A stretch of DNA of 62,953 bases, filler included, from Neolecta irregularis DAH-3 (lineage: Eukaryota), in NCBI GenBank assembly GCA_001929475.1. It is 6 parts of 6 records of this genome, joined end to end, with 100 filler letters (N's around TTAATTAATTAA, not from the genome) between each part and the next. Parts side by side here need not be neighbours in the genome. Positions count along the whole stretch, not along the records: positions 1 to 16,119 come from LXFE01000996.1; 5 more parts are not named here. The stretch is one strand, 5' to 3'. The notes beneath the pieces were generated by a model. It had not been told where the DNA came from, did no database searches, and saw nothing but the letters and a program-made list of their open reading frames with translations. Position 1 is the stretch's first letter. Each line of letters opens with the position of its first letter. Positions 1-60,836 of this stretch are shown here, piece by piece. Position numbers and translations under genes: made by a program.

Positions 1-227
1 CATGTATATATAGCACCTATGTGGAAGATAGCCGTCATCCTTACGGTGACGACTAACTGCCACATAGTTAGTCCTCAGTTACATCTTCCATCCCTTGAAT
101 AATCGATACTTTCTCTATTCGACACTCAAACATTAGATATGGAGACAAAAAACCCAGGCCATTAAACATCTAAATCGCTGCATGGAACAGAAAAAACTGG
201 ACGCTGTCCCTCTCAGTACACATTATT

Positions 228-3200
228 TCATTTATCTGATGACTGTGAGAATTTCCTTCCACCCGTAAGGGTCCGTATAATATTGCCGGCGCTCTTTTCA
301 AACACACTCGAGCCTTTCATTCGAAATGTGAAGCTTTTACGACTGCTTACACTATTTTGTCTAAGCGAGGAAACTGTACAATCAGAGGTAGTGTTTGGGG
401 TGGTTCGAGGTCTAGATATTGAACTGCTGCTCGCCGCCAGGAAACTCGGACCCTTCGTCGATGTCACAATATTAAGGTTCTGAGTTGAGGTCTCTACGAG
501 TTTGAAAGGGTTGGCGATGAGGATTGGCGTGCTTGGTGATTCATTAGGGTTGGGCAAAGTCGAATTTAATAGACCAGAAGGATCTTCCAGAGGAGTTAGA
601 CCTGATAACTCCTGTGCAAAGCTTTGTTCAAACCCTAGAATATTAAATTCAAATAAATACTTGACTGTACGAGCTGCAATTGGATCGTGCTCTGCCTTTC
701 GCTCCGGAGGTATCAACGACTCGTGAATTTGAAGTAATCGTCTGAGAATACTCACCTATCCCATTAATTTACGTCGGTATAGGCTGATAGACCTGGTCGT
801 CGATAGCAGCCTTCAAAGGTTTCACAAATTCTCCTTTTCTTTTCCCTTCATTCAGGAACTCATCTCGAAAATAAATAGTCCCTGCTCTTGGAGAAGAATC
901 AAGGGTTCTTTGAATGATTTTGGTCAATGGAGAGATATCAATCTTGTCTGTTTCAGTGACATATGCATACTTTCGCTCAATATTGAGGAGTTGAGTATTC
1001 TTTCGAGAAATTATTTCGATCGCGTTTTCGATAGGACTGGCACGTATCAGGGCAACAGTGATTATTTCAGACCTCCGCAGAATTGTTGGGAACACGAATT
1101 CGGTAAGCATGATGGTCTTCTCGGTCCAATTGTCAAGGAATGAAGAAGGCGTGGTCGACGAGATACCTAGCTCCTCCCTCGTCAGTGGCCTCGAGAAGCT
1201 GAATTTGTTGACATTATTATACTTGTAGTACTCCCGAACGCGCGGAAAGACATCAGATCTTTGGAGGACAGGCAGCTGTAGATCGGGTTCTGGTTTAACG
1301 TGGGTTATTTGGATGTACTGAATATTCTGATTAAGAACCTCCTCGTCGAATGGAGTACGGGAAGTGAGTAATTGAGCTGCAGGGTACAAACTAGCTATCC
1401 TTTCGCAAAATACTGAAAGTTTTTCCCCAGGTGCGCCCTGGTAAATGAAGTCCTTATTTCGTACGGAAACTGGACAACCGAGACCGTAAAATGCCACACG
1501 AAAATATTCTGGAAACTGTCGATCATGAAGAATGATATCCTCGTAAAACATAGCTTGTTGTCGAAGTAGCTTTGGCACTTGGGCGTAATTGAATGAAGTC
1601 CCTTGATATTGCAAAATAAGTTCTCCTACAAATTTAATAGCCAGTTCCCAGGCACGGCCTTGAGCAAGTAGCTGTATTATTTGTATAGCGAGGCTTTCCT
1701 TTCGCTCAAAGGCTGTTTGTGCTGGCATGAACGGCGACTGGAGCGTAGGGAGTATGGTGTCGAGATCCCAATCGTATATATCGCAGTGTAACTTCAACGC
1801 CAGTGCACCTTCGATATAATTCTTACTAATGACATGTGCTTCTACCATCTGATGCCTACAACTTTAAATTAGGATCGACGTAGAGATTATACACGAATCG
1901 AATGTAGATTTCTTCCCGATCGAGGCCCTTAACAAATTCCATCAATCGCAACGTGTCCATGATCCGGTCATTTTGATAAGCGTCGTCTTGTGGGAGACTG
2001 TAAAGATTTATAAGGAGCTCGAAAAATTGGTCGACCGTTTGAAGAACGTTATCAAGTTTCGCCATAAAATCTTGCCCAATATTGATTGCTTCAAAAGCGA
2101 CCTGAATCTGATCGAGAAAGAACGCCTTCGATATTCGATCTGCGAGATAGCGTTTAGAATAGAATAACCTATCAAGACACTATTAATTGATCAGCCATCA
2201 ATTTTCGGTTGGAAAATCACATCTATCATCTCTATTTGAATGACTAAAATGTCATCATTTAAGGTATATTCGTTGATAATCATCGTCTGTAATACTTGCA
2301 CGGCTACAGTTCGTAGATCGTCATGATGCGAGAGACATAGTTCAACGATTGGTGCGATAAGTGAAGGGACATATTGCACCTGATATCCTCCAATTCTGTC
2401 GAAAGGAATATATTTCATATCGTCCTGAGTTTGAGACCAACCTATTTCATGCCACAGGGTTTGGAACAACTCTGCACCGAGACCCCGAATGTCTCCTGAT
2501 ATCCTCCATACCGCCCGTCGTTTCTGAGGGCGAAAAGTTTCAATTGCGAGATCTTCCGATCCGATCAATCGTAAAAGCAGCATAAGATATGATTGCCATA
2601 CAGTTGTATTAAACAATTCAGCATTTTCTGGCTCGGGAATGAATTTTTTGAGGAAAGGGTCTGCAAGAATACTCGAGATACGAAGAATGGTTTTATGATT
2701 GGCAACATGTGAAGTCAACCAAGTTTTAGGAAAGGCATCGCCGGTCAATATTGATAGACAAGAGGTGAATATCTTTTCGAGTGTGTATGCCTTTGCTGGG
2801 ATAGCTAATTCAGAAAACTTTACTCTCACCGTAGGAAGAACATTTTCGAGATTAACGACTAAACCATATATGGTCATCAAAACGGCAGAGAGTTCTGCAG
2901 TTACCTCATCGTAATCTTCTTCTTGCGGTTCTATTGAGCGAAGGTTAGGTGGATTGCTCATGTTCGAGAATGGAAATGATATAGGAAATAACTGTGTCCC
3001 TTGATTCGGAGATTTGTTGTCCTTTGCGAGACAATAGACGTAGGTGATTTTTGGGAGGATATGAAGGAAACCTTGAATGGTATCACTAGTTCCTGGTTGA
3101 ACCCCATCACTTTTAAACGTTGTCCATAATTCATTAGTCAGAATAGCTAGGATAGTTGAGCATAATCGAGCTTGTTCTCGCCACTGAGTTCTCGCTTTCT

Positions 3201-6200
3201 CTTCTTCTGGTATAGGTTCCCCGAGGATAGGTTCAATCCATTCCATGACATTCGCAAATACTGTTGGTCGAAGAGTTTTTTCCATAAAACTTGGTGAGCG
3301 ACATATCGAAATTACGAGAAGGAGTTTATATGTTGCTATTTTTCCCGCGATTTCTCGACAGGCGGCCATGAAGTCCGATGCGATCTCGAAGACTGTTGCA
3401 ACTGGGAAAATGGCTTGGAGTTCTAGCAATAGACCCATAAAGTGTTGAAGAACTAGAGTTTGGGTGCCGAGGATTGAAGAGGGCGATGCTGTTTTAATGA
3501 TATTTTGCAAACTCTTGAATAGACCCTTGATATCTTTGACGAACGTTTGTTCCTAAGAATTACTTTCAAGAAGAGAAGCACCATCATACATTGTGCTGTG
3601 GGTTGATACCAATCGTATCCTCTTTAGGTCGTTGCTGCTGACGAGCTAAAATGATGAACCTAAGAATATGTTTCCAAACTTTAATAAACATCCTTAATCT
3701 CTTCGCAACAGCTGAGTTTGATGGATCAAACAATAGTCTATGGATTGCTCTGAATATTGCCGAGTTGGCGAATGGGAAAGTGAACCGGTGATTAATATAC
3801 TCTTCAACAATTGGTTCGAAATTTGGAACTCGACTGAAAAATTAAAAATACAGGGTCACAAAAGAGGATAGTACCGGTCATACATGATACCGAGCACGTT
3901 CACAATTACATCAAACACTAAATCATCCATATGCCCTTTTGGATTGGCCTCCGTAAGGATTTCAAATAGTGAATCGAAAACTTCAGGCAACAACTTTTAT
4001 AATCAGCACCAACAAATGAATATATCTTTTTCCACACCTTGACAATTTCCATTTCGGGGACAAAGATCGTCTTTTTTAGTATCTCTCCGAGAATTTCTCC
4101 ACGTTCCTGCTCGTCCTCGTTTGCTAGCTTTTTCCACGCAAACAACTGAAGTAGCGCTTCATTTTGTGTATATTTGGTCGAACAAAGAGACGTTGAGACA
4201 TGGAGAACACTTTTCCCTACAATAGTCGTCTGGGGTTGATTTCCTTCAGATATTGGAGAAGTAGCAGATGAGGGCCGACCGATGATACTACCGGGCCTTA
4301 ATTTAAAATGCTGAAGGTCAACATAGGTTTCCGGACGGTCTGCTATTTGGTCATATCGGTATAAAATGAGTTGATGATCCCCATCCTGAACGATGGTATT
4401 TGTGAACAGTGGCATCCAGGCAATCGCCAGGGGCGCATCTAAAATTCCTTCTTTCCGCAAATTAGCGAGTGTGAATACTGCAAAAGATCCTTCGATATCT
4501 TCTGGCGGTATCCTCAGATTGATCGTTTCCATCCACTCGGGATCATTGGTATGATGTATCACAAAAGACTGATAAGTCAACGATCCGCGTTCGACACCTC
4601 CTGATCGATATATCACACGATTAATTCTTCCTCCATGTCTATCACGTATTTCTAATGACAACTGTATGCTTCGGAGAGCTGTCGACGGAGTGCTAGAGGG
4701 TGCATGGAGACCGAATTTCTTTGGAAAAGGCAATGCACCGGATAGATCTGCCTTTTTAATTGTAAGGTAAAGGTCGGAACGAGGAAAAGTCGGCGCATTA
4801 TGAAATTGGAGACGTTGGATTATGGGTGTTAATTGCAAATCTATGGGATGGGTTTTCCGAAGTGAGGCGAGAGAATCAGATGTAAAAACCGATATGCTAA
4901 CTCCGATATGATCTGCTCGATGATGTTTGACACTACAAACGTTAGCCTATTTAATGAACAAAAAACGTTCAACTTATTCGTCCGCGAATTAATTATCTCA
5001 GCAGGAAGACCTGAAATTGCATTCTCTCCTCCGGTAGGTACAAAGATCCTCATAATGAGATCAAGAGCACCATTGACCTCGTTTTGTACTCTTAAGAGTT
5101 CACTGATATCGAGAACAGCGCACCCAAAAGCTCTTCTACAGCTTTGATGAGGAACGTTGGGTACAGAAGCGATAGTCGCATTCATTGTCAAAGTCTTCTC
5201 AGGACGAAATAACATCGATACTCTTGAAGTTGTGTTTCGACCGACAGTATTCTTAAGAGGACTTCGAGACATGAGATCGATCTGGTTGACACTGAATAAT
5301 TCCTTCAAATCACCGACTTTGAACACCTGACATATCAAAAAGATTTCTCCTGAAATATCTCGAGGGATAACTTCTGTAAATAGGGCTTTACGCTGGTTAT
5401 TAGTTGATACACCCTGAGAGTTGAGTGTCATTATCCAAGGTTCCGATAATGGCTTCTGTTCATTCCCAGCGTACAGGTAAAACACCAATTCTACATGTTC
5501 CCGTTTACCTGTGCAAACAGCAGCATTGAACTTTTGTACATTTAACAGGACATGTGTTGACGAAATCGAAGAACGAATGTGTGAACTGATATCTGGTTGC
5601 ATGAATGCAGGTGGCAGAACATTCCTGTTTTGCACTTTATTTCGTGATGCAATTTGAGCTTGCAGAGCCATCAAGACCACTGGACTTGATGAATTTTCGC
5701 CATCTAGAACTCTTCCATCGACCTCGTTTCGAAGGATGATTTCGCCTTGACCAGGACGAATGCGATTTCCCTCGGTCAACCGCCAAACAGCTTCACTCCG
5801 AACTTTCTCCAGTTCCCCTTCGGTAAAAATACAGGATAAGAGCTTCTGTCTGCATGATTCGAGTTGATTTATATATTCAACGATTGTATTGAATAAAGAA
5901 TAATTTTGATTTTGGAGAAGCGGATGGAGATGAGTATGCCATTCACGAACGGCAGCCGATATTTCGTCTATTAGAGGTTCTTTTTGACCCAGTTCTGTCT
6001 CATCTCCAGCTTTCAATGCAGGTAATGGAGGAGCAGGTCTTTGACGTTCTGAAGAGGCAGATGAAGGCATAGTGGGTAGTTTTGGGATCTTTACTGAAAC
6101 TCGATATCGATTGGGAGACGACGATGTATTCTGAGAATATGCAGATGCGGTGACAGAGCGAGATCTGCGAACTACTCGGTCGTATGCGGAAGACGAATCA

Positions 6201-6622
6201 ATAATTCTACCAGATATTGATTTAGCAGCATCATCATAATTGGGTTCGACGTCTTTTCCATCCCATAGATCATTGCCCTCGGAATCGCTCAGATAGTCTT
6301 TTATATGGACAAATGCGGCGGGGAATATCCCGACATATACTCTTGGCTCGTTTGTCCCTTCTGCAACTGTAGAAAGCAAGGATGAAGTAACGACGTAACC
6401 TCTGAGCCATGCTGCAGCTTGCTCAAAAACATACACTTCATCACCAATATCCAACGACACTTCATGGGCAACAGGATCCTCGGTTGCATCCGTCTGCTTG
6501 GAAACAATACTACTACGCCCACGACTCTGCAGGGTCCGGTCGTCAGAGGCACGAAAGGGAAAGATGGCTACACCGTATCCGATGTTCTGGAGCGGTTTCC
6601 AGGGGATGAGAAGGCTGAACAT
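228..6622 (-). CDS. DOCK180/DOCK1-2-family Rac guanine nucleotide exchange factor (SH3, C2/DHR-1, DHR-2), multi-exon
   Basis: Chain of minus-strand ORFs separated by ~40-nt gaps consistent with introns. N-terminus IPWKPLQNIGYGVAIFPF with SH3-like LDIGDEVYVFE..W.RG..VGIFP; DHR-1 RSDLYLTI..HHTNDPEWMETI; DHR-2 PEYFRVAFYGLG, SPIENAIE. Confidence 0.92.
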
Positions 6623-7201
6623 TGTGCTATGGCAACACTCTAAACCTCGATTCGAGTTTCAGAGTGGACGGAGACAATTACGGAAAAGGGGGAAGCTTAA
6701 TGGTCTGCGCAATCCTAGCGTCGGGGGTCATCTAGCCTTCATTTTCGTGTTTGTTCTGTCGGTCGAAACGTGGGTCCCCGGAATGTTCCAGATCCATTTA
6801 TGATATGGTGGTAAACGACTCTAGTCATGTTTCACAAATACTGCATTGCAACGCGTATCTTAGCAGGTGGTGGTCGGGATGTTTTTTTGGGTGGTTAGGC
6901 CAAACAAAATGCAGTCTTCTAAATCTTGGGAAAGCCAGTCTCGCTGCTATTACAACAGCCAAAGACTGCTAAACACATCTTCACTCTCCAAAAAGTAACA
7001 TAAAATCTGTGGTGGTGGCTACAAGTGGCATTGGATTGTCAAAATACTCTATTTTAGAGCGGTGGGTTTTCCAGGTCACAAAGCCGAGTTTCAGATTTTG
7101 TTCTTCTCCACTGCAAATAACCATAATATCTACCAACGAGAAGCACTTTGCTTCCGCATGCTTCCACCAGTAATGCCACTATTCTGAAGTTCTGGAGAAC
7201 T

Positions 7202-7946
7202 ATGTCGAATAGGCCTGCTTTCTCGAGAATAATTATCTATTTAATTCGGCACGGACAGAACATTGACGATGCTTCAAGCCGATGGGCCGGCACAAGGGAT
7301 TATGGGTATTTTCTTTTGAAAAATTGTTTGCTAATGTTAGACTTACACCCTTTGGCAAATTGGTAAATTCAAACTTGAAAATTTGATTGATTCGAAATAG
7401 CAATCACAAGCCTTGTCCAATTCTCTAAAATTGCGCCGCTTTGACAAAATTTACTCTTCAACCCTGAGAAGAGCGAAACAAACTGCGGAATTTATCCATT
7501 CCCTGCATCCATCAATACCATTAATCGAATCCTCTCTACTGATTGAACAAAATTTGGGGAAATGCCAGGGGCAGTCTTACAACGATAAAACACTCCCACC
7601 ATTTGAAGAAACGTCCCAAGAGTTATATAGCCGCGCCTCAGAATTCTGGAATGAAATAAAGCAAGAGAAAGGTAGCCTAGTCATCGTCTCGCACGCCCTA
7701 TTTCTGGCATCATTCCTACACTTTCTATGCGATAAATACGGAGTTGAGAAGCCTACGATATTCTATATCAATACCGGCTGGACTAGTCTGTCGATTGAAG
7801 AAGGAAGATTGAGGATTTTGGAGATTAATCAGAATGGACATTTAGACACCATCCATATGACAAGAACCATGCGACCACGACAAGGTAAAGCCATCCATCA
7901 GACACGGAGGTCAATTCGTGATTACTTTAATACACAAGGTGGGTGA
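7202..7946 (+). CDS. Histidine phosphatase / phosphoglycerate mutase-family protein
   Basis: IYLIRHGQ catalytic motif; two short GT-AG introns join it to FDKIYSSTLRRAKQTA, LIEQNLG and LVIVSHA motifs. Confidence 0.85.
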
Positions 7947-10218
7947 TTCTACTCTCAACTCCTCTTGATTGTTGATTCATTGGAATTCGGTATCCGCAAA
8001 CCAAAGCTTTTTCAGACACCTGAACTAGGAAGATGTTGGTTCCTAATGGATTCCAGATTCGCCTGGGGTCATAGCAAGCCTACTTCCATGTACAACATTC
8101 GCCTGGATCCGAGTTACCATCACTTTCGGATTGCTTATCACGAAAAAGCCCCATTGTCATCTGGCTCTATACTTTGGGCTTCATCAATCTGCCTTACTAC
8201 GATGATCTATGCCTTCGGGAGAATTTCGGAGGAATTTCAAGAGTGTATATCATCTGGGATGGAGTAGGACGATATTAAATGTGTCGGATTCGACACCAGG
8301 TTTATATTTTGTCTCAATAATTGCGAGACTTCCTCATGGGACCTATCCTTCTTCACTAAAGACAACTATTTACTTTGCATACAGATATTACTCGATATCT
8401 TGTCAACGGCTGCCTTTCAATTTAGATGTGCATCAACAACGCAACTCTTATCTTCGTCTTATTCTATACTTGGTGAAAAGAGACAGGTATTATGTCTGAA
8501 GAGTGATCTGTTAGTCGTGATTCTGGCATGTCCAATGAAATCCATAAGCCTTTTTCTTTTTCTTTTTCTTTGATCGATTCGAAAAACGATCATTGTTCGT
8601 ACCGTGTCTTCAGCCTAAGAGACATATACCCCTGGTTGTGCTGATGCCCGATAATACTTGTTCCTGAAACGATCTCCGTCTTTTCAGGATGATATGCAGG
8701 CGTCTCGGTGCTCTTTCCTTTCCAGATAAGCATTGAACCAGTTTGTAATTAACACCTGATAGCACAATCCTGCCGTGTATATCACCCAAATTACATAACC
8801 AAACAAAGGTTTGGATCAACAGGAATTTGCACTTCACTCAAAGTCTGACTTGCAATGGATGATGTAGAATCTTGGTGTGCCCTCTCAACAATGTAATTCG
8901 GCCAGGTAGGGTAATATCCGCTTTTTCCAGTCAACAAAATTTGTCTTGTTTCTGTATTTGATGAGGTCGGAGGCGATGAAGATTGAGGGCCTGTCATTCC
9001 CAATGCTTTACTATTTTTTGAAATTGGCTGGGTTTATATGATTTCAAGAAGTTGCCTATTCGGGCGCTTAATACAAGTATTACTTGTTCAGGCTGTAAAT
9101 GCAAGGTGATTGTGGAAAAACCGATGTCGACAAAAGGTTCTAGCCATAGTCTTTCTTTCAAAACAAAGGGAATACGGAACTATAGACCCTTGAAGCCTTA
9201 GAATCTCTTTGTTCTTTATGGATTTTTCTTTTTTCGTCGACCAACAGATCTCGCCAACAGACACTGTACATGACCAGTTACTAGAATAGATGATCAGACA
9301 TAACTGATCGAAAGACTTGTTGGAATTATAAGTTGGCAGAGAAACTGGAATGAGTTGTCACTTTGAGTGAGCGATTCAGCAAGATCTCTTCGGAGTTCCG
9401 GCAAAAGCCAGGTACAAAAGGCTTTTTCAAACTCAGTTGCCGCTTAACAAATACCTGTCCAGCACCGAAAGAAAATAGTCGTTTCTACTGCCGGATTAAT
9501 TGAAAGTTTTTTAACAGTAGAACGTCTTCTCAGCGCGCTATAGCACCATGTAAATTATGACATGCTCTCTGTTAAGCACTTTCACTAATTAAGAGGGAAA
9601 AATAAAGGCTGGAAAGTCGCGAAACAATAGATCTATCTGATATAGTATACTTTGTCTTGAAGAAGTTTCTAAATAAACAGGACAATGAGGATAAAGGGTT
9701 CGATCATCCGCTAAATTCCCGTTGTCTAATATTAGTCAACAGCAAAATATTTTGGATTGGCACAGGAAGCATACTTTAGTACAAGCAGAGAGTTGAGTTA
9801 TTGCATAAACATTACAATTGTATCAGTATCGTGTAACATCTCTCCATCTTTGACAATTCGATCAGAGGTTTTGACATAAAACATCCTCCTCAAAGTCAAT
9901 TGTCGAAAAATTGGTTTCCTGGTATCAAAATACCACGGGCCAATAGCAATCTCAGACTCCAGGTAAGAAAAAATCTGGGCGGTATTTCAGGAGGCAGTCG
10001 TTCTAGTGCGCAGCTTTGTGAACCTTTTGTGAAAGGTCAAACAAAAGCAGCCAGGTATATTCTTTTCCATTTGAAGAATCCATTCAAAGAATCAAAAATT
10101 AGAGCAGCTCTTTTAACTACTGCTACCGACACTGTACGGCGCTTAGCATAGTTCTCACCTCAGACAGGTGTTTGATAAGACAAGGCACATGAAGAATTGT
10201 TAGCGACTGTTACAGATT

Positions 10219-10228
10219 TCGGCGGCTA
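10219..10228 (+). promoter_or_regulatory. URS1-like element TCGGCGGCTA ~240 bp upstream of the methyltransferase ATG
   Basis: Exact match to the reverse complement of the budding-yeast URS1 consensus TAGCCGCCGA; function in this lineage is unknown. Confidence 0.3.
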
Positions 10229-10470
10229 AGAAACAAAATTAAACTGCATTCGATATTTGAGTATCTCTATATTATCTAATAAGAAATCAGAAACTCAAAG
10301 TGTCACGGCCTAGTTCCAATCTCGTTTGGCTTTAAGATCTGGAAACCCGTTTCATCTAAATTTATATTTCACCACGTAAGTTCAAATAATTTAATTTGGA
10401 AAGCCGAATAGGCAAAGTCTAACAGACCACTGCCACACGTTGTCGTCAAATCGACATTGATTGGTTAGAC

Positions 10471-13400
10471 ATGAAGCGAGTCTATCGATATTTTGATGAA
10501 CCAGAAAGTGCTACTATATGCAAGTCCGATAGCGAAATGGCCATTGAGGCATCAATAAAAAGCGAGTCAGCGAGCCTCAACTCCTTTGAAACAGATGAGG
10601 ACTACGATCTCGACATCTTCAATAAGTGGCTTGACGAGCCATTCGATGATGAAGAACTGGATCCAACTTATGTCGACGAAGAAGGAGCTGGGGAAAGTGA
10701 TGGATCTGGAGACGAGGAAGAGAGAACAGCGCGGAGAATCGAAAGCCGAAAATACCAGAAGAATCTTGAAAATGTCAAGTTTAAAGTCCAAATCAAGAAT
10801 GAAGACGACAACGCAGGGGAGCAAGATGTGGTCGAGGAGGACAAAGATGCTTGGCCTATTGAGGTGGGTTGTCAAATTCTTTGTTCGTTTTAAGGATTCT
10901 AGGATAAATCAGAGTCTGCGCGATCCGGATCATTTGCGATTTTGCCGTCCTTTCGAAAATATATACAGGTCCTTTGCAAATCCATTTGGAACTCTCATCT
11001 CATTTCATTTCTAGGAAGAGAAGGACCGCGAAAGTGCAGCTAATCGAGATTCCACGTCACCTGTTCAGCAGCCCAGTAATTATACTTCGGACCCACCACC
11101 TGACACAATATTTGTACCTATTTTCTTCTTTTTCTTTTTTAGAAAAGGAAGTATATTAATATTTAGTCTTGCACAGAGCGTCAAGGGACTTTGCAATCTG
11201 AACAACGAACCGATGGTCCGCCTCTCCATCGGCGAGGGCGAATTCAGTATCGCAGAAAACCGGGAAAACCGCCGGCAAGGCTTGAAGAGCTGTTTCGGGT
11301 ATATCGAATATAAAGAAAATTTTAATTCATAGATTCCTGGACTTGTTTCTGCTACGTTTATCCCAATCAGGCGAGCCAGAGGAGATGTAGAACCAGACAA
11401 TGACAACCGGCCGCAGGAACCACGAGAACGGCCTCCAAAACGCCAAAGGGTACTCACAAAGGAAAATGATGTTCGAAGCGCTGATGTTCAGACTAAAGCT
11501 ACCACTCCTGTAAATCCTTTGCTCGAAACTGTGGATGATATTGATGATTGGCAACAAGTCGACTCCTATCGCCCATATGAGATTGGTCAATTCTGGGCAA
11601 TCGATAATATTATAGTATTTCAAGTCCTTGGACTATATACAAGGGAGGAGGAAGGGATGGAAATCCTTGCTGCTAGGATACAACTTTATCTGCCATATTT
11701 CCGTATTTTGAACGACAACCTTCACAATGATCCCAAGGAAGTATGTGAAATCAGCCACGACGATACTCCGGTATACCTTCGAATTGGTCATTATGTTCCA
11801 GAAAAAGTTCATGTAACATTTCTCCCGTGGCATGATGAAAATCCATCCAATCAGGATGGTCCGTATAAATGTCGATGGAAATATACACCAGCTGATCGAT
11901 GTTTTACATATACTGTTCCTTGTACAGATAGCTTTCGTCTTACAGCTGGAAAAACACCTACAGTTGCTGATTTTTTCGCTGGAGCGGGTGGTCTTTCAAA
12001 AGCTGCTGCCGAAGAGGGATGCAATATAGAATATGCTGTCGAAAAGGACTCTGACGCATCAAATGCATGGCGGGAAAATGCAATCGCTGATCGAAGGGCT
12101 AATTTCGCTGCGGCTTCCGGGCAGATTTTCAACATGCCAATTGAGAATTACGTCGAAAGTCTGTTGACGAAAGAGATCGAGATTAAACATGTCGACATTC
12201 TGCTTTTCGGACCACCCTGTCAGGGATTCTCGAGGGCAAATCCAGGAGGTATGAACGATACTAAAAACCGAAACCTGGTCTTTTACATTGCACAAACCGT
12301 GTTTCTTATCAAGCCAAAGTACATCATGGTCGAAAACGTGCCTGGGATCCTAGATGCGCCTGGAAAGTTTTACTTTGAGTAGGCACTATGATTTTGAACA
12401 TCATTGATGTTATAGAGCTATGCTTAAGGATCTGTTACAGCTTGGGTATGCTGTTTCATACAACATCCTTCTAGCCGCAACATTTGGCGATCCTCAAGTG
12501 CGCTATCGAGTTATTCTGGTTGCTTCTGCCCCAGGGTATTTACATCCGTATCAGCCATGCGCCCATATCACCAATACTAATGAGTTCAATACCGTTCACA
12601 GGTAGTCTGGTTCTGTCTGTTTGTAATTTCTCATACTCTTTAGAGTCTTGGAAGGTTTAAGCGCAACAACTCGAAATCATACGGCAGATCATCATCCTTA
12701 TTTATACCCAGATTGGATTTATATGAACAAACGGTACCTTCGCCTCTCTATACATCCTCAACAGCCTGCAACTACTCTTCGAGCTGCACCTACGGATCGG
12801 TGGCGGTGTCTACGAGTGATCCGTCCGAATCCAAGGGCAAACGCCCAAATCCGATTACTTACACCACGAGAAGCTATAATGATCCAGGGATTTAGTCGAA
12901 AGTTTCACTTAGAAGGTTCCTATGCTGCGCAGTTCCGTCAGGCGGGTAATGCGGTGCCACTTGGCCTTGGACGAGCTGTTATTAAATCAATCATAGATGC
13001 ATTCCGACGCAATGTCAGTGGTGCTGTTACTCCCTTTGGACGTATGATCGAGGTTCAAGGAAGGTTACCGCGTTTTGATCTCGAAGATGATGGCCGAGAG
13101 GATCTAGATATCCCACTAGTTCATCCCCGCTTGCGAATAACTCAGGACAATGAGATTGAATATCAGATTAAGGACTTGCCCAGTCTTGAGGATGAATCAA
13201 AAGCAGTGAAAGATCATGAACAAAGGATTGATCAATTCATTGTCCGAGTCCCTTACACTATTTTTGTGGAGCCAATAGCAACCCCACAATCGGAAGAATC
13301 AGGATCTGAAGACACTTTCATCCAGGAGCCTGACACTGATGAGATTGCCGAGAGATTTTCGGGTAATGATCCTAATACGCAAGAGATATGGTGTGTAGGC

Positions 13401-13511
13401 ACACAAACGTGGAAACCAAAGGGTGCTTTCAACAAGAGACAGCAAAGGTTGAGGGAGGATAATAAAGCTAAATGTGAAGCGTGCCTGAGAAATGAAAGAA
13501 GACATCAGTAG
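10471..13511 (+). CDS. DNA (cytosine-5)-methyltransferase, RID/Masc1(DNMT4)-like, with BAH-like domain and C-terminal Stc1-like zinc finger (~929 aa)
   Basis: Exons 10471-10863, 10903-10968, 11015-11113, 11167-11298, 11333-12378, 12416-12601, 12644-13511 splice in frame via GT-AG introns. Motifs: I DFFAGAGG, II AVEKD, IV GPPCQGFS, VI MVENVPG, VIII PQVRYRVIL, IX RLLTPREAIMIQGF, X QFRQAGNAVP. Confidence 0.93.
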
Positions 13512-13573
13512 AGTTGTTTATTAAGCAAATACCAGCAAGGCCTTACTTAATAAAAGTAGACTCAATATTTTAT

Positions 13574-14801
13574 TCAAGCAACATCTGAAATTCCTCCTGC
13601 CAGAATACAATAACTGCATTCCTTCTCAGCCATATCTGGACTATCCAGAAGCTTTGCCACCCTTTCTTCGCCTCTTCCCTTCCTCAACATTATTCTAGTA
13701 GCACTGGCGTGCGCAAGGACATGCCCTCCAACAGGCTTCTTGTCGTTCGATGCAAACATCAAAGAAGCTCCAGGGTCAGATTGAACCTGATTTGTAAGGA
13801 ACACTGCAACATTGAACTCCTCGCTCATTCTTGAAAGACGACTCAACATAACATTGAGTTTCTGCTGCCTTTCTGAAAGTTCCCCTCGACCAGAATAATC
13901 GACTCGGAATAATGCCATGATTGAATCTACGATAATCAACTTGTAAACGCCCTTCTCTTCAGTAAAGGTAGTTGACAGACGGTTTATCAGATCCAACTGA
14001 TGTTCAGAATTCCAAGCTCGACCAACAACGATATTTTCCAAGGCTTGTTCAGCGTCGACACCGAAACGTTCGGCAATGGCTCGGATACGGTCCGGCCGAA
14101 ACGTTCCCTCTGTATCTATATATGCAACTTTCCCTTCTCCACCTCCCATCTCTTTTGGGAGTTGAGACGTGACACATAGAGTGTGACACAACTGAGTCTT
14201 CCCGCATCGGAATTCTCCATACACTTCGCTGATTGACATCGACATGATACCTCCTCCAAGAATTGCATCGAATTGCTTGGAGCCGGTGGAGATCGAGATA
14301 ACCCTCCGACGAGCATGAGATATCGTGGAAGCGGTAGAAAATCCAGCAGGCTAATGTCAGCGAAGAAATAGATGAATGGAAGTTACGCAGAGCTTTGATG
14401 CGGCTTCCTTTAACTTCTCCACCTTGGCCTCACTGAGCCCTTTAATCTTGCCGAGATTACGACGAGTGACCATTTGGACGGCTGTCACAGTACAGATTCC
14501 TGCAGCTCTCAGTTTTGAGATGTCGGAAGCATTAATTCCTGGTATATTTCAGCAAATGTGGAATGTATTTGATGAGCAAGGAGATGGGATTTCAATAGCC
14601 CACCTAAATCTTCGATAGTGTTTGTAGCACGACGGGCTCCCAGCACCAGTTTGAAAGAAGAGAACTTGCTATTGCTTCATTTAATTGGATTCAAGCCCTA
14701 TAACAGGCCACGAAAAGACTACCTTGGTTTTGAAGTTCTTCGATCTCGTAAAATAGTTGATCATCATCATCACCGTAGTCGGAAGTGGAATCACCTATCA
14801 T
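13574..14801 (-). CDS. DMC1: Meiotic recombinase Dmc1
   Basis: Exons 14801-14723, 14538-14387, 14350-13574. [21 protein letters not shown]; Walker [28 protein letters not shown]; Dmc1-type [37 protein letters not shown]. Confidence 0.96.
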
Positions 14802-15489
14802 CTCTAGATGAATACTTTTTTAGGAACAGCTAGATGCAATGGATAGAGACAAAGTATAAGACAAAGTTTGACAAACGAGAAGTGCCGACTCTCAATTGTA
14901 CAGATTTAAGCGATTATCAGGCACACGTAGGAACGTCCAGAGATGAATGAAGATAGAACAAGCTTTAGATATTGAAATAATGTTAACTTTAGGGCGAGAT
15001 ATGTTGAGAGAGTAGTTGGGAGTGGGAAGATGTCATTATTATGAGGATGTTTATTATATACCGAATGACATCTCGGCGCCACCTTGACGAGATTAGCTTT
15101 TGGGTAGATTGGTAATGGAACATGTATTGCATCTATTTGTGACTGGCGAGAAGCATCTCTGTTCTAGAAACACACTGATGAGGAAATGGTAATTGTGTAT
15201 AGCAATTTTGTTTGTTTCTTCTGGTCTGGGTGTTATTTATTAGGAGAGAAGATATCGAGTTGCTCTATCTCTCATTCATAGGAATTCTCATGACTGGCTA
15301 AGTAAGCCTATAAGTATCTCCTAGAGCAAATCGCGTCTGACAAAGGTAATTCATGCGACGTATATCTAACCCCCAAATCTTAGCATTTTTACAATCGTAG
15401 TGCTTCATCGCTGCCTGTCGATAAGGTTGGTCAGTGGTGTCATTACGGAGACCTCAGAAGAGGAAATATTCGGGCAAGTTCAGTGAGAG

Positions 15490-15520
15490 TTAGGGTGAGT
15501 TAGGGTTAGGGTTAGGGTTA
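15490..15520 (+). repeat. Short interstitial telomere-like repeat (TTAGGG)n
   Basis: ttagggtgagttagggttagggttagggtta: four TTAGGG units, three of them in tandem. Confidence 0.8.
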
Positions 15521-16119
15521 AGAAGGTTATGAAATCATTTTCAACCACATGTCCAAGCGTACGGCAGAGCCTTCGAGACCAGAAATCAACCCTAGCCATG
15601 CTTTAAGGGAAATGTGATATTGGACAGGTATAAACGTGGGAGAGTCCTGTCATGTGCCGAGGCCATCATGGTCGACGCAGAAACAAGATAACGAGGATAT
15701 TAGCCGTTGACGCAAAACAAAGTCGGCCCATCCAAAAACGGCGACTGTAAAACCTTCTTCGTTGATCAACACCACAACTTGCGCACCAGTAGCAAGGATG
15801 GAAATCTGAATGATCATGTAGCGAAATATAAGAGCGACAGCTGGCAATTCTTTTGCTCTCAGACCAAGTCCGAATCTTATTTCGTGATCGACAATATCAG
15901 TCATTACCAAGGCGTTTATCTATGCTTCCTACAGAGCGATTGGTTGCAGGATTGTTGGTCTCGTAGTTCTAGCGATTTAATAGTTAGACCCCGTTATGTT
16001 CCTCGTGCCGATAATTTTCTTCTCATAGCACAACCTCCACCATGAAGTAAAAGCAGCCGTTGAATGGATTTTACTAATAATATAGTTTTCCTGGAAATAT
16101 CGAAATTGAGGGAAGAAAC

Positions 16120-16219
16120 NNNNNNNNNNNNNNNNNNNNNNNNNNNNNNNNNNNNNNNNNNNNTTAATTAATTAANNNNNNNNNNNNNNNNNNNNNNNNN
16201 NNNNNNNNNNNNNNNNNNN
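16120..16219. other. Artificial contig linker (N / TTAATTAATTAA / N)
   Basis: 100-nt spacer with stop codons in all six frames; the same spacer occurs four more times. Confidence 0.98.
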
Positions 16220-18323: not shown

Positions 18324-18423
18324 NNNNNNNNNNNNNNNNNNNNNNNNNNNNNNNNNNNNNNNNNNNNTTAATTAATTAANNNNNNNNNNNNNNNNNNNNN
18401 NNNNNNNNNNNNNNNNNNNNNNN
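18324..18423. other. Artificial contig linker
   Basis: N / TTAATTAATTAA / N, 100 nt. Confidence 0.98.
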
Positions 18424-18557
18424 GGCAGGAGCAAGTGGGTTGAATGGCGAAAAAGATGACAATACCCGTCCGATATCAAAGGCGAGTGGGGGACCCCAGT
18501 TTGTGGCGTTGACCAAAAAGGTAATATTTTATTTCAGTATGGCGGCGAACGCGGTTT
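18424..18557 (+). repeat. Direct-repeat copy 1 (~135 bp)
   Basis: Identical to 19175-19312 except GAGTGGGGGACCCC versus GAGTGGAGCACTGACCCC; flanked by gaps on both sides. Confidence 0.9.
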
Positions 18558-19009
18558 NNNNNNNNNNTGCATCCTGTATAATTCTTCTTATTGAAGTCAT
18601 GGCAATTGAGGAAGCTGGTGGTCTTGTATCTTTCTATTGGTTCAGAAAAGAAAGATAAAAATAAAAATAAAAATAATTTCTTTAGGGTCTGTAGTATGAT
18701 GTATATAAACCGCCATTTAGGTAGAAAATCAGTATCTCTTTTGTTCAACACGCCTGTAAGCAATCACTAAGTTCCCCTTGCCGCACTGCACCCCAAGACC
18801 TAGAAATACTCTTGGGCTCCGCAGGGCTAAGTTGTGGTAGGCACTGATACGATTTCGCCTATAGGGCAGGAAGTGTAACTAAATAAACACAAAAAGATCA
18901 CGTAGTAGGAAACAGGTTTATAGGTTGTGCGTATATAGGAAATTCCATTCCAACGATAAGCAGCACAGAAGCTCAACAAATCGCTGGTAATCGACCCACA
19001 TTACAGGAG

Positions 19010-26576: not shown

Positions 26577-26676
26577 NNNNNNNNNNNNNNNNNNNNNNNN
26601 NNNNNNNNNNNNNNNNNNNNTTAATTAATTAANNNNNNNNNNNNNNNNNNNNNNNNNNNNNNNNNNNNNNNNNNNN
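26577..26676. other. Artificial contig linker
   Basis: N / TTAATTAATTAA / N, 100 nt; the genes on both sides are truncated. Confidence 0.98.
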
Positions 26677-54425: not shown

Positions 54426-54525
54426 NNNNNNNNNNNNNNNNNNNNNNNNNNNNNNNNNNNNNNNNNNNNTTAATTAATTAANNNNNNNNNNNNNNNNNNN
54501 NNNNNNNNNNNNNNNNNNNNNNNNN
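54426..54525. other. Artificial contig linker
   Basis: N / TTAATTAATTAA / N, 100 nt. Confidence 0.98.
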
Positions 54526-55553: not shown

Positions 55554-55649
55554 CAAAACCACCTCAATAGGAGAAGGTTATCTCCAATCATCCATAACCT
55601 GCATTGATGATTGTTCAGGCAATAGAGGGCNNNNNNNNNNCCATCATAC

Positions 55650-60736: not shown

Positions 60737-60836
60737 NNNNNNNNNNNNNNNNNNNNNNNNNNNNNNNNNNNNNNNNNNNNTTAATTAATTAANNNNNNNN
60801 NNNNNNNNNNNNNNNNNNNNNNNNNNNNNNNNNNNN
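60737..60836. other. Artificial contig linker
   Basis: N / TTAATTAATTAA / N, 100 nt. Confidence 0.98.

Follow-up and report, generated by a model that had tools for sequence, protein, structure and literature searches.

Does a DNA methyltransferase of Neolecta irregularis DAH-3 end in a zinc finger through which small-RNA complexes could direct DNA methylation? The question is raised by a gene in the window analysed here, a stretch of 62,953 nucleotides from assembly GCA_001929475.1 in which six parts are joined end to end, positions 1 to 16,119 coming from LXFE01000996.1. The gene lies in this first part and encodes a C5 cytosine DNA methyltransferase, publicly available as a protein of 929 aa (P0001). 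A preliminary description of the locus had read the C-terminus of this protein as a finger like that of Stc1, the Ago1-binding adaptor of Schizosaccharomyces pombe, and had proposed a direct link between Argonaute and DNA methylation. Our preferred reading, to which we give a probability of roughly 45%, is that a widespread zinc-ribbon module has left a single, decayed copy in the end piece, which is now a basic C-terminal tail.

The end piece and a widespread zinc-ribbon module

Behind motif X (GNAVP) the protein continues into a linker with a net charge of -15, which is covered by no relative (residues 759-887), and then into the basic end piece that holds the finger-like motif (Table 1). 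This order of elements had been described before and is what we observe, and the 32-residue string quoted for positions 13389-13484 is the in-frame translation WCVGTQTWKPKGAFNKRQQRLREDNKAKCEAC, residues 890-921 of P0001. The protein had also been thought to end at CEAC; eight more residues (LRNERRHQ, including His928) precede the stop codon at 13509-13511. As originally reported, there is a single finger unit with three Cys, in which T894 replaces the second Cys, and both a DNA run and a contig of spliced-RNA type have no other letters at this position. The last 42 residues of P0001 have a net charge of +6, and the 128 residues before the finger (760-887) contain no Cys at all.

The motif is of the type C-x2-C-x3-K(P)-x3-F...C-x2-C, and the tail would have descended from a zinc ribbon of this type. 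Its best calibrated match is the PHROG family phrog_2633, 'endonuclease VII' (E 0.011, 16.9 bits, profile positions 9-51 of 142). We assembled a phage-type set from two members in bacterial genomes and 80 viral loci, 57 of which have the finger by regular expression, giving 44 distinct fingers. These start MKvCSkCKxEKPxxxF...CKxC, and C4, C7, C28 and C31 are invariant in 44/44; PF02945 spans only the nuclease part of the phage endonuclease-VII-like proteins. Against a profile built from the 44 fingers, K898-R927 of the tail align with a score of 9.3 bits, which 47 of 20,000 composition-matched shuffles also reach, and hhalign of the tail against the finger profile gives P 0.0093. The elements K-P-x2-A-F and K-C-x-A-C are common to the tail and to L019, a bacterial-genome member of the set with identical viral copies. 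A PDB search with the 44-finger profile gave 6 sequences at E<=10, led by the restriction endonuclease Hpy99I (E 0.02), with Stc1 finger 2 next (E 0.62). It seems that the fingers of the phage proteins and of Hpy99I and finger 2 of Stc1 are members of one module class, and the Stc1 finger could be part of a wider family of modules that is under-annotated. Judged by its sequence, the Neolecta tail is a weak and incomplete match to that class.

Decay of the module is supported by several observations. T894 stands against the Cys4 arrangement found in 44 of 44 phage fingers, the hidden Markov model (HMM) and hhalign alignments begin only at K898, past the broken first knuckle, and AlphaFold2 (AF2), run on the whole protein, predicts a helix over 905-928 with a predicted local distance difference test score (pLDDT) of 61-77. 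In Stc1 itself, C83A or C93A destabilises the protein (PMC2875855). Since one of the four zinc ligands is lost and there is no partner finger, the end piece is not a working Stc1 (LIM-like) domain, and zinc binding would have been lost with the ligand. What is left would be a basic, largely helical C-terminal tail that acts in targeting while the catalytic core stays intact; it may aid import into the nucleus or bring the enzyme into contact with nucleic acid or with a partner in chromatin.

The same residues could also form a working zinc knuckle of a non-canonical type, in which C891, C918 and C921 are joined by His928 or by a second subunit and which binds DNA or RNA, an extra finger on a DNA enzyme as in the phage HNH nucleases. 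His928 stands 7 residues past C921 and inside the predicted helix, the tail is strongly basic, and the module class sits on DNA-cutting enzymes, all of which would suit such a knuckle. Against this, the phage fingers include no Cys3His variant, and the first half of the motif is without alignment to the profile. No zinc-knuckle fold appears in the AF2 models of the tail or of the whole protein, which is weak evidence as the tail was modelled without an alignment. Structure prediction of the 70-residue tail alone, a check proposed in the preliminary description, gave helices at pLDDT 59.5 and no confident fold. We consider a working knuckle unlikely, and prefer to see in the tail a module that has decayed.

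Likeness to Stc1 and the case for Argonaute

The likeness to Stc1 had been noticed by eye, from a finger pattern. A relaxed form of this pattern fits the tail, whereas the strict form has 0 hits. Searched for in the fetched proteins (51,499 aa) and in the window translated in six frames (125,902 aa), the relaxed pattern occurs at this site only, and it is present in 0 of 200,000 shuffles of the C-terminal 170 aa (expected ~4e-4 per 2.5 million residues). These figures overstate significance because the pattern was fitted after the sequence was known. In phmmer searches of 177,635 PDB sequences, Stc1 (2luy_A) was retrieved at E 0.72 and 1.4 (~13 bits), among 7 sequences at E<=10 with a 60-aa query and among 5 with a 43-aa query.

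Residues 40-121 of Stc1 form two tandem zinc fingers, a LIM-like domain, and K100A or R116A abolishes the association of Stc1 with Ago1 while recruitment of CLRC is kept (both PMC2875855). It is finger 2 that the tail aligns with, sharing 11 identical residues at the positions that define the pattern; the score for finger 1 is 0.4 bits. An offset of +29 from the 2LUY chain to full-length Stc1 fits 4/4 of C83, C93, K100 and R116. Stc1 C96, the second Cys of finger 2, then corresponds to Neolecta T894, and the alignment, which is itself not significant, puts K898 on K100 (identical) and K917 on R116 (conservative).

Other searches bear on membership in the Stc1 family. In the ESM-Atlas, the two feature clusters nearest to residues 860-929 carry PF12898, the Stc1 domain, in 13% and 34% of their members, with scores of 0.86 and 0.85 that have the level of a lead only. 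Two of the ten structure rows are PF12898 clusters, with template modelling (TM) scores of 0.55 and 0.56, under the bar of the tool. The PF12898 profile has 84 positions and a cut-off of 24.8 bits; in 401 genomes of one bacterial phylum it gave 10 weak matches and 0 over the cut-off. A Pfam search with the last 60 aa, which the preliminary description had put forward as a check for the Stc1 domain, returned no family at E<=10. This negative result on the tail is weak, since Pfam does not recognise the fingers of the 2 phage-type proteins tested as PF12898 either. Of the description as an Stc1-like finger, the motif likeness stands and is specific to finger 2; membership in the Stc1 domain does not, given the missing PF12898 match, the single finger and its three Cys.

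Relatives of the tail itself were sought in several ways. A word-based search against shorter proteins found no homologues of the tail. In another search, for each of 54 matches besides P0001 the best stretch lay within query residues 11-151, the methyltransferase part and just beyond, and 0 of the 54 extended to the finger (query residues 247-288). A metagenome scan with the last exon gave one locus, a bacterial-type tandem methylase with only motif IX in common, and in 50,697 phage records tblastn found no match to the tail. The same fusion was also looked for with the finger profile in 112 fetched proteins, where P0001 was the best match (E 0.61) and the finger was found on no other methyltransferase homologue.

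The only close relative is P0003 (600 aa), a true relative with 32% identity to P0001 over 422 columns (E 3e-60), in an alignment that takes in ~95 residues ahead of motif I. After an acidic stretch, and followed by an acidic tail, residues 533-560 of P0003 read CSCC-x20-CNAC, an intact Cys4. The arrangement C-x2-C-x20-C-x2-C has the spacing of Stc1 finger 2, a hint that the P0001/P0003 lineage may have had a C-terminal finger ancestrally. However, this Cys stretch retrieved no Stc1 in the PDB search and no PF12898 cluster in the Atlas. On the phage profile it scores 3.0 bits, with 1647 of 20,000 shuffles as good, and the tails of P0001 and P0003 are no closer to each other than shuffles (1200-1764 of 5000). 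The Cys4 motif of P0003 looks unrelated to the Neolecta tail.

These comparisons weigh against descent from a zinc ribbon, as do the following. Every similarity score of the tail is at or below the usual threshold. The finger profile is narrow, as the finger itself supplied the peptide patterns that recruited the 80 loci, and a regular expression then selected 57 of them; a shuffle P of 0.0024 for this profile would fail a correction for many families, and the hhalign probability is 4.4%. In the PDB searches IP6 kinase and dengue prM, which are unrelated, are level with Stc1, so this match alone is at noise level. Pfam hmmscan at E<=10 with tails of 60, 53, 43 and 38 aa returned 0 families, and the whole of P0001 matched PF00145 and one weak methyltransferase family, with no PF12898. 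No search found a relative of the tail by which selection on it could be judged, and a role in nuclear import or nucleic-acid contact is read from charge alone. It is quite possible, then, that the resemblance is due to chance, three Cys and a few Lys, Phe and Gln falling on the pattern by accident, and that the end piece is a basic tail specific to the lineage, for example a nuclear localisation signal or a helix that contacts DNA, without zinc-finger descent. The plain helix given by AF2, the P0003 tail that does not align, and a relaxed pattern chosen post hoc where the strict one fails would all be expected on this explanation. Yet four partly independent tools (phmmer with 2LUY, ESM-Atlas, PHROGs and our own profile) agree on the module class, the tail shares two elements with L019, and P0003, too, has a C-terminal Cys cluster spaced as in Stc1 finger 2. 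We judge the similarity of the tail to be probably real, a little better than chance, and short of the level that finger-family membership would take, and we continue to favour the decayed module.

The likeness to finger 2 was the starting point for a more far-reaching proposal, in which a working Stc1-type finger binds the Neolecta Argonaute or a RITS-like complex and small RNAs recruit the methyltransferase directly, giving RNA-directed DNA methylation. The specificity for finger 2 would agree with it, as would the alignment of K898 and K917 with K100 and R116, both of which lie in that finger. Neolecta and S. pombe both belong to the Taphrinomycotina, and the enzyme is expressed and catalytically complete by its motifs. 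Against the proposal, one zinc ligand is gone where single Cys changes destabilise Stc1 (PMC2875855), only half of a tandem LIM-like domain is present, and the PF12898 match is absent. The motif class is also found on phage HNH nucleases and Hpy99I, with no Argonaute involved. The window has 44 open reading frames (ORFs) of 170 aa or more, and no Piwi or PAZ domain was found in the 20 that were scanned, a result that does not extend to the genome as a whole; the scanned ORFs are ordinary fungal genes (DOCK, RAD51, JmjC, adenylate cyclase, OPT, TAF1-like, UreD, Arg5,6 and others). We regard recruitment by Argonaute through a working finger as very unlikely. Hardly any weight should be given to the specific form in which a minimal Stc1-type finger docks the methyltransferase on an Argonaute/small-RNA complex, with the K898 and K917 positions as the binding face and His928 or a partner in place of the missing Cys. 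Because the motif class occurs on enzymes unrelated to Argonaute, the motif does not by itself predict Argonaute binding.

The methyltransferase core, gene model and neighbourhood

The enzyme is a C5 cytosine DNA methyltransferase (PF00145/TIGR00675) by both profiles and motifs. PF00145 matches P0001 441-758 at E 4.4e-46, and TIGR00675 matches at E 8.3e-39 with 134 bits, above its cut-off of 100.65. Motifs I, IV (PPCQGFS), VI (ENV), VIII (QVRYR), IX and X (GNAVP) are present, from which the catalytic core is judged complete, and G447, C526 (the catalytic Cys), E564, N565, R608 and R610 are invariant across a 50-row alignment. With this alignment AF2 is confident over 435-768, mostly at pLDDT >90 in the catalytic domain, and falls below 50 at 1-434 and 769-903. 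Foldseek retrieved DNMT1, MET1, DIM-2, ZMET2 and the bacterial enzymes M.HaeIII and M.HhaI, each with E in the range 1e-16 to 1e-21, and in phmmer DNMT1 and a prophage Dcm are both at E about 1e-17.

P0003 is the only relative with >30% identity among 1.84 billion representatives, and neither three word-based searches nor this exhaustive search found other members of the lineage. In a tree of 50 rows, built without RID, DNMT5, DNMT3 or DNMT2 references, P0001 and P0003 form their own long-branched clade with a Shimodaira-Hasegawa-like approximate likelihood ratio test (SH-aLRT) support of 98; the position beyond that clade is not settled by the tree.

Upstream of motif I, positions 11560-11960 (P0001 ~300-440) are conserved between P0001 and P0003. 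A divergent BAH-like domain guessed by eye at P0001 300-430 is unsupported by Pfam or PDB sequence search: PF01426 (BAH) has no match in P0001, and the 160 residues upstream of motif I retrieved no BAH protein from the PDB. Some PDB alignments with DNMT1 begin at P0001 residue 396, and AF2 places beta strands over 313-351 at pLDDT <50.

The methyltransferase stretch is present in two sequencing runs of one study, neither of which is listed as RNA. The run labelled 'DNA?' gives a single 4227-nt contig across 10300-13700 in which five GT..AG introns of 53, 34, 42, 37 and 42 nt are skipped, with otherwise 0 differences, and this contig therefore derives from spliced RNA. Between 12642 and a point past 13700 it is unbroken, and 0 other letters occur there. 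This gene is expressed, and its transcript has the last exon, with the finger motif, uninterrupted.

The public model needs correction: it keeps one intron, and its N-terminus is uncertain. When all seven GT..AG introns, which are very short (34-53 nt), are removed by script, the product has 915 aa. P0001, whose NCBI source title is 'Modification methylase SinI [Neolecta irregularis DAH-3]', equals this model plus 14 residues from one intron, by the same kind of check, and the last exon matches the end of the protein at 100% identity. The 4227-nt contig is also unbroken over 10300-11113 with both annotated 5' introns retained, so that the N-terminus is uncertain and the C-terminus settled. With these introns kept, an upstream ORF (MKRV..., from 10471) would stop at 10891-10893, and the main frame opens at 11015 with its first Met at codon 172 (~11659), approximately where P0003 starts, which would give a form of ~590 aa with MEILAAR at its N-terminus. 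The retained introns may reflect an upstream ORF or alternative isoforms.

The stop codons of the methyltransferase and of the convergent RAD51 gene are separated by 62 nt (13512-13573), which leaves no room for a further methyltransferase exon. The transcript contig extends ~800 nt beyond 13700 across the RAD51 gene, so the two transcripts may overlap at their 3' ends. The genomic contig that carries the methyltransferase stops at 16119. Runs of N in the window lie at 16120-16219, 18324-18567, 26577-26676, 54426-54525, 55631-55640 and 60737-60836, and are mostly paired 44-nt runs.

Table 1. Features of the methyltransferase locus, in window coordinates
Feature	Position	Strand	Basis
C5 DNA methyltransferase gene	10471..13511	+	last exon = P0001; spliced contig
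Coding exons of the methyltransferase (8)	10471-10863, 10903-10968, 11015-11113, 11167-11298, 11333-11449, 11492-12378, 12416-12601, 12644-13511	+	
Two annotated 5' introns (10864-10902, 10969-11014) and the small exon between	10864..11014	+	unspliced in RNA-type contig
Retained in-frame intron, 42 nt, kept as 14 residues in P0001	11450..11491	+	GT..AG, skipped in RNA-type contig
Methyltransferase catalytic domain, P0001 441-758, two introns inside	11963..12995	+	PF00145, TIGR00675, alignment, AF2
Acidic linker, P0001 759-887, predicted disordered	12996..13382	+	charge; pLDDT <50 over 769-903
Basic end piece EIWC...RRHQ with finger-like motif, P0001 888-929	13383..13508	+	
Motif codons C891, T894, K898, C918, C921, H928	13392-13394, 13401-13403, 13413-13415, 13473-13475, 13482-13484, 13503-13505		
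RAD51 gene, last large exon, convergent with the methyltransferase	13574..14350	-	PF08423 Rad51 E 1.2e-117; ORF list

Comparison with known systems

Version 1 of a preprint on Pneumocystis centromeres describes the Taphrinomycotina as without DNA methylases (PMC10327204). The 2024 version reports DNA methyltransferases from both N. irregularis and Saitoella complicata (10.1101/2023.05.12.540427), so that N. irregularis was already noted there to have the enzyme. In the table of a review, S. pombe is the sole entry of the subphylum (PMC7862722). Literature searches, with supplementary material outside their scope, turned up no Stc1-type finger fused to a DNA methyltransferase. What the locus offers is an expressed, intact and nearly orphan C5 methyltransferase in Neolecta. 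It also cautions that an 'Stc1 finger' motif alone is not to be taken as a signal of Argonaute binding, since the wider module class heads phage nucleases.

RNA-directed DNA methylation is established in plants, where AGO4 acts with DRM2, and this is a functional precedent for a de novo DNA methyltransferase guided by Argonaute. To our knowledge there is no fungal case. The plant link is made by separate proteins and RNA polymerase V transcripts, whereas in the proposed Neolecta link the finger is fused to the enzyme. If the proposal were true, small RNA would be connected to 5-methylcytosine by a new route open to direct test, a methyltransferase that brings along its own adaptor for Argonaute, and an early-diverging ascomycete would have a link for RNA-directed DNA methylation in one protein. 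The evidence does not reach an Argonaute-adaptor methyltransferase.

In its core the Neolecta enzyme has the complete C5 methyltransferase fold and motifs in common with the eukaryotic enzymes DNMT1, MET1, ZMET2 and Neurospora DIM-2 and with the prokaryotic Dcm-type methylases. Unlike the DNMT1 superfamily, it is without a Pfam-detected BAH, RFTS, CXXC or chromo domain.

In its tail it has I-W-C...Q...K...F-x-K-x-Q...C-x2-C...R in common with zinc finger 2 of Stc1 (S. pombe SPBP8B7.28c, PDB 2LUY), and both proteins belong to chromatin silencing in the broad sense. The tail differs from Stc1 in having Thr for the second Cys, no first finger and a loop 3 residues longer. Stc1 is moreover a small adaptor with an N-terminal domain, whereas the finger-like tail stands at the C-terminus of an enzyme. 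With the phage endonuclease-VII-like HNH nucleases (phrog_2633) and Hpy99I (PDB 3FC3) the tail shares C-x2-C-x3-K-P-x3-F...C-K-x-C and a basic stretch, and the phage nuclease finger and the tail are both add-ons to enzymes that work on DNA. The phage finger is N-terminal, Cys4 and attached to a nuclease, whereas the Neolecta tail is C-terminal, Cys3 and attached to a methyltransferase.

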